A DNA stretch of 64,000 nucleotides from IMG/VR virus record IMGVR_UViG_3300032093_000005; one strand, written 5' to 3'. This stretch comes from a virus. Lineage: Duplodnaviria; Caudoviricetes. The translations under genes were made by a program, and so were the position numbers. Numbering within the stretch: position 1 is the stretch's first letter; each line of letters begins with the position of its first letter. The notes below the pieces were generated by a model, which saw nothing but the letters and a program-made list of their open reading frames with translations, ran no database searches and was not told where the DNA came from. Positions 46,497 through 49,351 of the stretch are shown one piece after another.

Positions 46497-47144
46497 TTAT
46501 TTATTGGTATTTCTTGTAAAGGTTCTTCCTCTCCTCCAACCTTGAGGTATTTCATTTTCCTTAAAAACATATCTACTTTCATTGCCATCAGTAATCCACA
46601 TCATAACACTTTTCCCACTATTCCAAGATTTTTTACCATACCTATGATTTTTTTCACCAATTTGTCTCTCACTCAATTTTCTTTTAGTTTCTTCACTCCT
46701 TTTTGATCCATAGGATGGATGATCTTTACCAAACTTACCATACATATGATTTTTTTCACCTTTTTGGCGGTCACTAAACATTTGTAAAACATCTTTACTA
46801 TGTCTATATCCGTAGGCAGGATGTTTCTCTCCTATTTTACCATACATTGGGTTATTTTTTCCATTCAAACAATAGTAGAATTTAGTTGAAGTCTGTTTTG
46901 CTCTATTCGCAAAATGAGGATTTTTATCTACTTCATAAAAATTGTGAAGAATTATTTCTGCTTCAAGTGCTTCTTCTACACTATCAAAAGTTTCTAAAAT
47001 AATCTTTTGAGATGGATTAAAGTTCTTATCGTGAAAACTTCCAAAGTAATTTACATCTTTTTCTGGAAGACAATCACATTCTCTTTTTCCAATATAACCC
47101 CTCCCATATTCCTCATAGGAATAATACACATAAAAATGTTTCAT
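46497..47144 (-). mobile_element. GIY-YIG homing endonuclease with NUMOD3-like repeats
   Basis: FYVYYSYEEYGRGYIG...YFGS; repeats NPMYGK, HPAYGYRHS, NHMYGK, HSEETKRKLSE-like. Confidence 0.85.
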
Positions 47145-47243: not shown

Positions 47244-47996
47244 TTATGGACTCAGACGAGCACGATGCAGTCTTTTCTCTTCATAATACTTCCAAACATT
47301 TGGTGACCATTTTTGAAGAAGAGGGACAAATTGCTCACACAATGCTTGAATCTCTAATTGTGCATCCATTTTTGCTCGCAGATCCATAATATGAAGAACA
47401 GAACGTAAGTTAAAAGAAACCACAAAGTTCTGACGAATTGCTTGTGCAAGATAGTCCCTAATGTGCTCTTCGCACATTCCTTTTTCGTATTTTGTCGCAT
47501 AACGCTTGCAACCTTCTACAATCCAGTTTAGTTCGTCTTGATAATCTTCTGCTGTCCAATCATACTTCTTACCATACCGATTAGTATAAAATCCAGGAGG
47601 ACGCACAAAAAATACATCTTCTGGTTTAAGTTCACCGCTTGCAACTTTGATTACTCGCTTACCAGTGTAACGTTGAGATTGAACATCGAAAGTTACACCC
47701 ACTCTATGAGTTCGTGCCTGCATCGCAACATTATGAACATACCCAGACACTGAAAAAGTAATAGAAGGGTGTTCTAGGGGGCCCCAGTGCCCTTTCTCAT
47801 TGCTTAGTAGACGCTCTACAACCCATTCACCACATTCATTTGGACTAGGAATAGTTTGGTTGTGAATTGGAGTTTCAGAATAATCACATTTACCTGCCTG
47901 ATAAATGACTTGTTCTGGAAGTGCATAGCATTGAAGAACTACTACTTCAAGATTTTTATCAAGTTCAAGAAGATCTTTTGCTTTAATAGGTTTCAT
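47244..47996 (-). CDS. thyX: Flavin-dependent thymidylate synthase
   Basis: GHWGPLEH, QARTHR...QSQRY, NLRSVLH..DLR...AQLEI. Confidence 0.88.
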   Translation of the reverse strand: MKPIKAKDLLELDKNLEVVVLQCYALPEQVIYQAGKCDYSETPIHNQTIPSPNECGEWVVERLLSNEKGHWGPLEHPSITFSVSGYVHNVAMQARTHRVGVTFDVQSQRYTGKRVIKVASGELKPEDVFFVRPPGFYTNRYGKKYDWTAEDYQDELNWIVEGCKRYATKYEKGMCEEHIRDYLAQAIRQNFVVSFNLRSVLHIMDLRAKMDAQLEIQALCEQFVPLLQKWSPNVWKYYEEKRLHRARLSP

Positions 47997-48388: not shown

Positions 48389-48481
48389 TCATCGCATTGC
48401 CATTGCAAGTTGTGCTTTGTATTTACGATCTTCTTTTTTCTTTTGATCTTTAATAAGTTGAAGTACATTAATTTTCTTCAT
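48389..48481 (-). CDS. 30-aa basic peptide coupled to the DUF4278 gene
   Basis: Hand translation: MKKINVLQLIKDQKKKEDRKYKAQLAMAMR; its ATG overlaps the upstream TGA. Confidence 0.5.
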   Translation of the reverse strand: MKKINVLQLIKDQKKKEDRKYKAQLAMAMR

Positions 48482-48618
48482 CACTTATGCCCCTCCTTTA
48501 CAAACTTAACACCACGATAGGTTTCGTTGTATTGTTGGGGTTGCTGCATCATCTGTTGTTGATACTCAAGACGCTTTTGAGTATCATATTCAATGCCGCG
48601 ATATACGACTTTAGACAT
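48481..48618 (-). CDS. DUF4278-like protein (45 aa)
   Basis: Hand translation: MSKVVYRGIEYD...ETYRGVKFVK with two YRG motifs; strong AAGGAG RBS. Confidence 0.8.
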   Translation of the reverse strand: MSKVVYRGIEYDTQKRLEYQQQMMQQPQQYNETYRGVKFVKEGHK

Positions 48619-48650
48619 TAGGTTTCTCCTTAGTTTTTTAGGTTAAAGAG

Positions 48651-48701
48651 CGTTCCTTCAGTCGGCGTTTGCGTTCGGTATTTGCGAATACCGAATGAAC
48701 G
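48651..48701 (-). ncRNA. Downstream glnA-riboswitch-like element (3' half plus rebuilt or degenerate 5' half)
   Basis: CGTTCA-[TTCGGTATT/AATACCGAA stem]-CGCAAACGCCGACTGAAG-GAACG; has P1 and GAAG but lacks GGAAGTA. Confidence 0.6.
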
Positions 48702-49248
48702 ACCTACTCTTTTTCCACCTACGAATAGAAGTATGACTAGTCCCATACATTTCACCAAGTTCTCTAATAGGTATATCTAAGATAGAAGGATTTTTATCTA
48801 CGTCTTCCAAGAAAACTTTATATCCACCACCCCTTCTTCTATCATTTAGATATTTTTCAGGAGTGTTGATATAAGTAGATAAATCTCTCAGTCTACCTTT
48901 AACCCAACCATTAGGTATTTGGTTTTTATGGACTAGTTTTTCTTCTATTCCATTATTCACACGAACCATACCATAGGAGCATAGACCAACTTTTGTTGAC
49001 TTCACCTTATTAGCGAAGTGTTGATTCTCATCAACAGAGAAGAACTCATGGAGTTTTATTTCTGCTAAGTGTGCATCTTCTCTAGTCTCGTGGATGGATA
49101 GGATAATTTTTTCAGTTGGACTGAAAGTTTCATCCGTATAACTCCCCATATAAAAATCCATAGAAGGTTCTACAGAAGAACCCCTAGAACCAATATATCC
49201 ACGACCATAAGGTTCGTATGAGTAGTAGGTATAGAAAAACATAGGCAT
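48658..49248 (-). mobile_element. GIY-YIG homing endonuclease inserted in the riboswitch region
   Basis: FYTYYSYEPYGRGYIG...YMGS, paralogous to 46497-47144; C-terminal HTH-like IRELGEMYGTSHTSIRRW. Confidence 0.8.
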
Positions 49249-49250
49249 CC

Positions 49251-49291
49251 CGTTCCGCGTCGGCTTACTTCCGTCTGTTTCCAGATGAACG
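49251..49291 (-). ncRNA. Glutamine (glnA-class) riboswitch aptamer, 5' half with altered 3' junction
   Basis: CGTTC-A-TCTG GAAA CAGA-C-GGAAGTAAG-CCGACGCG-GAACG: P1, P2 and the GGAAGUA E-loop strand. Confidence 0.75.
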
Positions 49292-49298
49292 TAAGGTC

Positions 49299-49351
49299 AT
49301 TATAGACCTTTTCAGATTATATAGCAATATTACTGTGTATAAAATGTTACA
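49299..49351 (-). promoter_or_regulatory. Promoter with NtcA-consensus box
   Basis: TTGCTA (49322-49327) - 17 nt - TATAAT (49299-49304); TGTA-N8-TACA at 49336-49351. Confidence 0.65.

Follow-up and report, generated by a model that had tools for sequence, protein, structure and literature searches.

Homing endonuclease genes settle where they are least harmful, namely in self-splicing introns, in inteins and between genes. For instance, the gene for I-TevI (PDB 1LN0) resides in a self-splicing intron, the genes for SegA-G of T4-like phages are located between protein-coding genes, and group I introns carry homing open reading frames (ORFs) in peripheral helices. The sensor that concerns us here is the type-1 glutamine riboswitch (Rfam model RF01739, glnA RNA), which is known from the leader of Synechocystis gifB and whose usual cyanobacterial association is with DUF4278/IF17-like genes (PMC6212724); its structure is that of Ren et al. 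2015, as described in PMC6698751. In the present work, we describe a phage glutamine riboswitch that harbours a predicted homing endonuclease gene. The locus lies on the minus strand of a 64,000-nucleotide (nt) stretch of DNA (hereafter the window) from the IMG/VR record IMGVR_UViG_3300032093_000005, a cyanomyovirus of the Kyanoviridae type, to which S-SRM01 is the nearest isolate with just 76% identity.

The locus shares features with each of these systems. Like the gifB-type riboswitch, it is located upstream of a DUF4278/IF17-like gene, it is made up of CGUUCA, P2, CGGAAGUA, P3 and GAAGGAACG, and an anti-Shine-Dalgarno-like segment follows P1. Unlike in the type-1 riboswitch, P3 is formed from two distant segments, a predicted second core, without an E-loop and with the CGCA of type 2, is located at the tip of P3, and P3 and P1 of the window would have to close over about 600 nt including a complete nuclease gene. 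The nuclease resembles SegA-G and I-TevI in having a predicted GIY-YIG-type fold at the N-terminus and a helix-turn-helix at the C-terminus and, like the seg genes, its gene is found in only some of the otherwise collinear phage genomes, at a specific site and with no intron around it. However, neither an intergenic region nor an intron is occupied here, but the hairpin loop of a non-spliced riboswitch. As in the group I introns, the ORF is placed in a terminal loop, the core pairings can in principle form and a conserved sequence of the host RNA is the likely target. By contrast, there is no splicing, the ORF stays in the mature mRNA and the host RNA is a metabolite sensor and not a ribozyme. 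A riboswitch hairpin loop would be a new kind of safe harbour for homing genes.

We consider it likely that the leader is a nested double glutamine riboswitch and that its inner loop is occupied by a site-bound homing endonuclease gene, which has spread by homing. An initial annotation of the locus, which was made from the letters alone, had proposed that a homing endonuclease gene interrupts a glutamine riboswitch and that long-range pairing might re-form the aptamer. All sequence elements that it described are present on the minus strand, and both proposals are supported: combining the 5' half upstream of the insert with the 3' half downstream of it results in one type-1 aptamer, covariation supports the long-range pairing of P1 and P3, and the homing-type nature of the nuclease agrees with a match to PHROG 314 and with structural matches. 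The glnA model matches each half below its gathering score, and the endonuclease-free alleles that the annotation suggested looking for in related phages do exist, with the two units joined directly. The riboswitch, the nuclease gene and the regulated gene belong to a predicted transcription unit (promoter, nuclease ORF, DUF4278-like ORF and terminator), which lies entirely on the minus strand (49327-48363) and contains the following elements:

49299..49327, minus strand: sigma-70-like promoter, TTGCTA-17-TATAAT, with the -10 box at 49304-49299
49251..49291, minus strand: riboswitch unit 1, from the RF01739 match (30.1 bits) and covariation
49291-49287, minus strand: 5' strand of the outer P1, CGUUC, followed by A (unit 1)
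49285-49274, minus strand: P2 hairpin of 4 base pairs (bp), UCUG-GAAA-CAGA, with a GAAA loop (unit 1)
49273-49266, minus strand: CGGAAGUA (unit 1)
49265-49258, minus strand: 5' strand of P3, A-GCCGAC-G, followed by CG (unit 1)
49255-49251, minus strand: 5' strand of the inner helix, GAACG, followed by GG and by the ATG at 49248 (unit 1)
48703..49248, minus strand: inserted DNA of about 545 nt, absent from empty alleles according to the alignment with the loci L038, L089 and L025
48658..49248, minus strand: homing endonuclease ORF of 196 amino acids (aa), with the stop codon TGA (48660-48658) in GAC-TGA-AGG
48651..48701, minus strand: riboswitch unit 2, from the RF01739 match (29.5 bits) and covariation
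48701-48697, minus strand: 3' strand of the inner helix, CGUUC, followed by A (unit 2)
48695-48674, minus strand: P2' hairpin of 9 bp with a CGCA loop (unit 2)
48673-48668, minus strand: CGCAAA (unit 2)
48667-48660, minus strand: 3' strand of P3, C-GCCGAC-U, the final U being the first base of the nuclease UGA (unit 2)
48659-48656, minus strand: GAAG (unit 2)
48655-48651, minus strand: 3' strand of the outer P1, GAACG (unit 2)
48626..48650, minus strand: presumed expression platform, in which CUCUUU (48650-48645) is complementary to the Shine-Dalgarno sequence AAGGAG (48631-48626)
48481..48618, minus strand: regulated gene, a 45-aa DUF4278-like (IF17-like) ORF, from matches to PF14105 and phrog_5049

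A scan of the whole window with Rfam at the gathering threshold revealed only two tRNAs and a group I intron and no riboswitch; standard scans of this kind overlook interrupted switches. At a permissive E-value threshold, unit 1 (49293-49247) matched RF01739 with 30.1 bits (E 3e-4) and unit 2 (48703-48647) with 29.5 bits (E 4.5e-4). Both scores are below the gathering score of 35 bits, and unit 1 is devoid of GAAG and unit 2 of GGAAGUA. In the nuclease-free sister allele L038, the model aligns end to end as a single aptamer (45.5 bits), and 57 nt are looped out of P3. All parts of the three-way junction (P1, P2, P3 and the E-loop strands GGAAGUA and GAAG) are present, with P1 and P3 being long-range. 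Within the 64-kb window, GAAGGAACG occurs once, with 0.24 copies expected. The composite of two units is not a chance match because it recurs in more than 200 independent phage contigs. A 99-nt span of S-CREM1 has also been annotated as a single glnA riboswitch, with 44 bits in the authors' table (PMC9964418).

The phages lacking the nuclease gene define the insertion point. In S-PM2 and S-CREM1, the two units are directly adjacent with GAU between them, and they show the same 'defects' as the units of the window. A pattern scan of IMG/VR matched at least 119 DNA stretches, and 118 loci with both motifs were among the matches listed, to which all counts over 118 loci given here refer. According to the spacing between unit 1 and the 3' end of unit 2, these loci fall into three classes: plain alleles, in which a linker of 3-6 nt joins the units (64 loci), alleles whose second hairpin encloses a gene of about 50 codons (52 loci) and alleles with a spacing of 584 nt (two loci, namely the window and L025). 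When the window is aligned with the empty L038 and L089 and with the occupied L025, the insert falls between GGAACG-G(G/A) and U-CGUUC, and no target-site duplication is found at the junctions. The insertion point is the loop capping the inner helix, which has 3-4 nt in nuclease-free phages, and the insert contains the whole nuclease gene except for its final 15 codons. More than 100 nuclease-free alleles already have the inner GAACG, the inner CGUUCA, the P2' hairpin and both GCCGAC copies and, thus, these elements are native to the riboswitch.

Comparison of these alleles points to a nested structure, in which the first CGUUC and the last GAACG would form the outer P1, the two GCCGAC segments would pair with each other and the inner helix would carry a short loop. 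The ends of the GCCGAC helix can be read as A-GCCGAC-N paired with N'-GCCGAC-U. Over the 118 loci, N:N' was U:A in 77, G:C in 40 and U:G in one case, and the outer end pair was A:U in 112, C:G in four, G:U in one and mismatched in one. A formal count with 42 distinct plain alleles gave GC (23) or UA (19) for the inner end pair, with no unpaired case, and AU (38) or CG (3) for the outer one; a self-contained mini-P3 within each unit pairs in just 16 of the 42 sequences. P2 covaries as well (4/4 pairs). Moreover, the internal A.C of P3 becomes A-U in a GUUGAC variant, in a divergent family, a perfect helix of AGUCG with CGACU takes the place of the GCCGAC pairing, and further families combine GGACGG with CCGCCC or AGACAACG with CGUUGCCU. 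In some lineages, P1 varies, with two sets of variants that read CGUUC, CAACG, CGUUG and GAACG or CGUUU, CAACG, CGUUG and AAACG from the first to the fourth strand. In both sets, the first and fourth as well as the second and third strands are always Watson-Crick paired, and pairing the strands side by side (first with second, third with fourth) leads to C.C and G.G or to U.C and G.A mismatches. Of the 228 distinct complete elements, 17 are compatible with the nested arrangement alone and none with the side-by-side arrangement alone, the few odd rows being due to the search pattern matching within loop genes. The minimum-energy and centroid folds of an empty allele also have the nested topology. 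At the tip of P3, the inner GAACG/CGUUC helix and P2' are predicted to form a second, E-loop-less core. Since each core retains CGUUCA, a hairpin followed by CG, and GGAACG, which are segments common to the type-1 and type-2 structures (PMC6698751), two ligand sites are conceivable.

The nuclease lineage is bound to this single loop. A profile-guided scan of IMG/VR revealed that all full-length relatives with upstream DNA (35/35; 49-94% identity) are flanked by units 1 and 2; unit 1 ends 3-18 nt 5' of the match, and the 3' end bears CGUU(C/G)A. Riboswitch units flank none of the 23 relatives whose similarity is confined to the nuclease domain. Full-length homologues selected for their identity, close ones at 68-96% and distant ones at about 50%, were likewise all located between units 1 and 2. 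The occupied loci span several riboswitch subtypes and differ in their neighbourhoods, the locus following nrdB in L128 and lying upstream of thyX elsewhere, and isolates with the resident type of nuclease include Sf-CH5, S-H68, S-B43, RN05-S and RB11-B. In the annotation of these isolates, the gene is called a homing or HNH endonuclease or hypothetical, and the riboswitch is not mentioned. In the public record of L128, the nuclease call starts at an ATG in the promoter sequence TATAAT-GACC and reads through unit 1 (L128:1501-1545); gene callers draw riboswitch sequence into the nuclease ORF.

Empty and occupied alleles can be matched with each other. A rare P1 variant is common to L214 and L141, which are empty, and to the occupied L133-135, and the occupied L025 and the empty L089 have a common 5' flank. 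Two further loci look like internal-deletion remnants of the nuclease gene, to judge from their linkers: in L220, 64 nt remain, in which the leader and the first seven codons are followed directly by the final 25 nt of the gene, and in L047, 21 nt form a short hairpin from both ends of the insert. In a lake metagenome with an occupied allele, other contigs cross the empty junction directly, and a metatranscriptome contains the empty form (contig depth 230) and a nuclease-bearing contig (depth 3.4); being contigs, these data show presence only. The gene is present or absent at one exact site in otherwise homologous genomes, as for homing genes in general, and the matched alleles, the remnants and the co-occurrence of both forms in one lake sample point to homing. 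The empty, occupied and remnant alleles also amount to a natural experiment on the amount of foreign RNA that a riboswitch loop can bear. As a side observation, the contig depth summed over 48625-48694 (unit 2 and the DUF4278 leader) in a freshwater metatranscriptome was about 1200, compared with 3.4 over the nuclease gene, which is a hint that the leader RNA is abundant, the depths being those of contigs summed across many phages.

The 196-aa product matches PHROG 314, 'homing endonuclease'. A search with phmmer against PDB sequences gave nothing useful. The AlphaFold2 model (predicted local distance difference test score of 82) has strands at residues 4-11, 17-24 and 46-53 and a helix at 56-70. 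With an exhaustive structural aligner, the best match was the catalytic domain of I-TevI (1ln0_A; Z 6.0, root-mean-square deviation 2.5 A, 74 of 92 residues), followed by the GIY-YIG domain of UvrC (Z 5.7), and residues 135-193 match homeodomain-like helix-turn-helix domains (Z 5-5.8). Y6, Y8, Y18-I19-G20, R22, E63 and N80 are invariant among 38 homologues, which puts Tyr, Tyr-Ile-Gly, Arg, Glu and Asn where GIY-YIG enzymes have them. Structure and motifs place the protein in the GIY-YIG superfamily with moderate Z scores, and we read it as a divergent GIY-YIG enzyme with the layout of I-TevI and Seg, for which the model and the motifs suggest three parts:

Residues 1 to about 85, nuclease protein: N-terminal GIY-YIG-type domain (model and motifs)
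Between the two domains, nuclease protein: middle beta segment (model)
Residues about 135-190, nuclease protein: C-terminal helix-turn-helix (model)

The final 15 residues of the protein are encoded by riboswitch unit 2. The riboswitch-encoded tail is probably incidental because the proteins of relatives stop soon after WKKS. The initial annotation had correctly located the stop codon at the TGA of CTGAAG, yet the position carries no significance of its own, since the stop codons of other alleles fall before, inside or after unit 2.

The window contains a second free-standing nuclease gene (215 aa; 46497-47144, minus strand), which is located downstream of thyX (47244-47996). The first 90 residues of the 196-aa nuclease are 52% identical to this protein, which has NUMOD3 repeats instead of the helix-turn-helix. 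F-CphI of S-PM2 was considered as a relative and rejected: the tblastn match is really to the neighbouring ORF178, and F-CphI has an Endo VII motif.

The nested riboswitch with a homing gene in its inner loop could operate as follows. The leader of the DUF4278 (IF17-like) gene would form a nested double riboswitch with an outer type-1 aptamer, whose P3 is built from the two GCCGAC segments, and the free-standing 545-nt homing gene would occupy the loop of the inner helix. During co-infection, the nuclease would cut empty alleles near the inner loop, and repair would copy the gene in; to judge from the sequence comparisons, the odds are good that the predicted enzyme has such a homing activity on empty alleles. 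The near-invariant riboswitch DNA would supply both the conserved target and the homology arms, and the riboswitch core, being among the most conserved DNA in these phages, would be an ideal homing target. The nuclease gene does not have a separate promoter and is the first ORF of the mRNA made from the riboswitch promoter. Transcription is predicted to start about 7 nt past the -10 box, which is the first base of the riboswitch, and the order TATAAT-GACCTTA-CGTTCA is kept across many related loci. The switch would fold around the insert, and the passage of ribosomes and the folding of the sensor would be mutually exclusive because the ORF starts 2 nt past the inner-helix strand and traverses the inner helix, P2' and one strand of P3. 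According to the coordinates, a ribosome halted at the UGA would cover the anti-Shine-Dalgarno segment. This segment, CUCUUU, adjoins the 3' end of P1, and the CUCUUU/AAGGAG hairpin is present in the minimum-energy fold. By analogy with the gifB system (PMC6212724), sequestration of the Shine-Dalgarno sequence by CUCUUU is the presumed mechanism of the expression platform. The riboswitch is part of the 5' leader of the 45-aa ORF, which is DUF4278/IF17-like by its matches to phrog_5049 (E 1.6e-10) and PF14105 (E 0.0015; 19.3 bits, under the cut-off of 25.3).

The RNA of the insert may contribute to this arrangement. Compared with shuffled sequences, the fold of the window's insert has a z-score of -9.07, and five other riboswitch-resident inserts have z-scores of -7.9, -7.4, -6.0, -5.4 and -3.9. 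For the few controls, three nuclease-domain relatives elsewhere, the z-scores were -0.14 (46497-47144 of the window), -0.18 and -3.9; the last of these was obtained with 20 shuffles for L301:489-1145, a nuclease-domain-only relative outside any riboswitch. In the lineage of the window, the 5' end of the insert, start codons included, is predicted to pair with the 3' end beside the inner helix. A conserved stem hiding the start codon in all lineages was considered and rejected, as the end-to-end duplex beats internal controls only in the lineage of the window, in L128 and in L136. Our tentative and rather doubtful suggestion is that the lineage has adapted to the riboswitch, such that the insert RNA would fold on itself, hold the halves of the sensor together and leave nuclease translation under the control of the glutamine-dependent fold. 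In models of this kind, a compact insert would gather the sensor halves and limit translation of the nuclease, but the switch may equally be disabled. If true, the arrangement would be an RNA-structural alternative to the strategy of introns and inteins, by which a 545-nt gene sits inside a sensor without splicing and without destroying it.

Several observations weigh against the nested fold, the nuclease assignment or the adapted insert. The covariation in P1 comes from few lineages and few independent events, that of the P3 end pairs is carried by just three common haplotypes, and the 8-bp P3 contains two C.A mismatches. Neither the whole protein nor residues 1-97 matched the Pfam GIY-YIG family (PF01541) even at an E-value of 10, Foldseek found no match for the whole model, and the fold assignment combines a middling Z score with motifs. 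Occupied alleles are scarce (2/118 loci), and L130 has changed E-loop bases and an ORF of 149 aa. The insert may also be costly and disable the switch. As to the RNA of the insert, one of the three control nuclease genes has a z-score as low as -3.9, the end-to-end duplex was not stronger than internal controls in L133 or in the Sf-CH5 type, and the covariation term of RNAalifold was unfavourable (+3.98 for eight inserts, with many pairs retained). Since this term is unfavourable, it is the z-scores by themselves that speak for a structured insert.

Some of these points would also be expected if the insertion is simply damaging, which we regard as a possibility to be taken seriously, even if a doubtful one. 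In that case, the switch would be unfolded, the DUF4278 gene would be constitutive, off or expressed only by coupling to translation of the nuclease, the riboswitch halves would be young relics, and the stability of the insert RNA would just throttle translation of the nuclease or be incidental. The rarity of occupied alleles, the state of L130, the remnants, which indicate loss following invasion, the need for ribosomes on the nuclease ORF to unwind the inner helix, P2' and a strand of P3, and the weak covariation support for the insert fold all agree with this explanation. However, all examined occupied alleles, down to 49% protein identity, retain complementary P1 and P3 strands, rare variants included. 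Association with the site across such divergence suggests that the cost is tolerable, and all six resident inserts have z-scores of -3.9 or lower.

That the locus is a plain tandem of two independent aptamers, with the nuclease gene in the spacer and unit 2 alone controlling DUF4278, is improbable. Tandem glutamine riboswitches are common (157 doublets in Sherlock 2022, PMC9481103; Weinberg 2010, PMC2864571), each unit has the segments shared by type 1 and type 2 (PMC6698751), and each alone scores about 30 bits against RF01739. The P1 variants, which fit only the nested arrangement in 17 distinct elements and only the side-by-side one in none, argue against a tandem, as do the few sequences in which units could form a P3 of their own. 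Furthermore, the E-loop strands GGAAGUA and GAAG are split between the units, and Rfam favours the single nested alignment with 45.5 bits over 30-35 bits. The initial annotation had offered an insertion between tandem aptamers that later decayed as its alternative; the position between two units was right, but no decay has taken place, as the same sequences are conserved in the empty alleles. Phage glutamine riboswitches that have been counted as 'tandem' in the literature appear to have the nested fold.

Domestication of the nuclease as a nitrogen-regulated phage gene, which could serve, for example, to break down host DNA or to exclude competitor phages and would have come under the riboswitch because this benefits the phage, is very improbable. 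The gene is the first ORF behind a promoter that is headed by a riboswitch, its start codon abuts the inner-helix strand, and the lineage is old with every invariant residue intact. However, its distribution is patchy (about 1-3% of loci), empty alleles that match occupied ones, together with remnants of internal deletion, are the hallmark of cyclic homing, and the DNA-binding tails have been swapped modularly among relatives, as is typical of homing enzymes. The scenario of the initial annotation itself, a single ordinary aptamer that was cut in two by an insert bringing along a new GAACG and CGTTCA and duplicating GCCGAC at its junctions, gains some appeal from the consensus-like aptamer that results from joining the halves at GCCGAC, but it is refuted by the more than 100 nuclease-free alleles, in which all of these elements are native (GAACG and CGTTCA occur in S-PM2, S-CREM1, L038, L089 and over 100 others), in which the two GCCGAC copies are the covarying strands of one helix, and which show that removal of the DNA between them does not restore the ancestral allele.

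The nested riboswitch also carries genes in its other loops. In 23 loci, about a quarter of the related loci (L014, L016, L028, L030 and L058 among others), the P2 hairpin of unit 1 holds a conserved ORF of 66-69 aa (for example L058:5610-5813), whose product has a hydrophobic N-terminus and shares a conserved WELMDIVKNDDVV motif. This ORF starts at an AUG on the 5' side of the P2 stem (CGUUCA-UCCU-AUG), which is closed by AAUAGGA. In L001:2070-2234, L004:1365-1514 and 49 more loci, the P2' hairpin of unit 2 is taken up by a conserved ORF of 50-53 aa. Its sequence is MEALILTCLQAQ ... IDAKAD, its AUG is again in the stem (CGUUCA-UCU-AUG), its last six codons consist of conserved riboswitch bases, and it uses the same UGA stop codon as the nuclease gene of the window. 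Neither the P2-loop ORF nor the P2'-loop ORF matched a Pfam or PHROG family. L131-L135 and L128 carry the P2'-loop ORF in addition to the nuclease gene. In contrast to these alleles, the window has its insert in a third loop, which caps the inner helix, and the occupant of this loop is a mobile nuclease gene. A literature search found no paper connecting homing endonucleases with glutamine riboswitches; what is new is a dedicated GIY-YIG-type homing lineage in this third loop, with empty, occupied and remnant alleles.

A variant locus, L136:150-1100, has E-loop-like strands in both units, with unit 1 ending in GGAAGGAACG and unit 2 reading CGCAAGUA ... CGAAGGAACG. A 56%-identical nuclease gene with a GTG start codon is located between the units, and no P3 between the units could be drawn. 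L136 may be a true side-by-side tandem.

The predicted transcription unit of the window ends with two further elements:

48484-48389, minus strand: Lys-rich ORF of 31 aa, overlapping the stop codon of the DUF4278 gene (GTGATGA)
48384-48363, minus strand: intrinsic terminator, the predicted end of the transcription unit

Short ORFs comparable to the 31-aa ORF are also present 3' of the DUF4278 gene in S-PM2 and S-SRM01. Elsewhere in the window, there are two tRNA genes (28358-28287 and 28282-28209, minus strand) and, 68 nt past the second of them, a group I intron match (28140-27954, minus strand; 58.5 bits).

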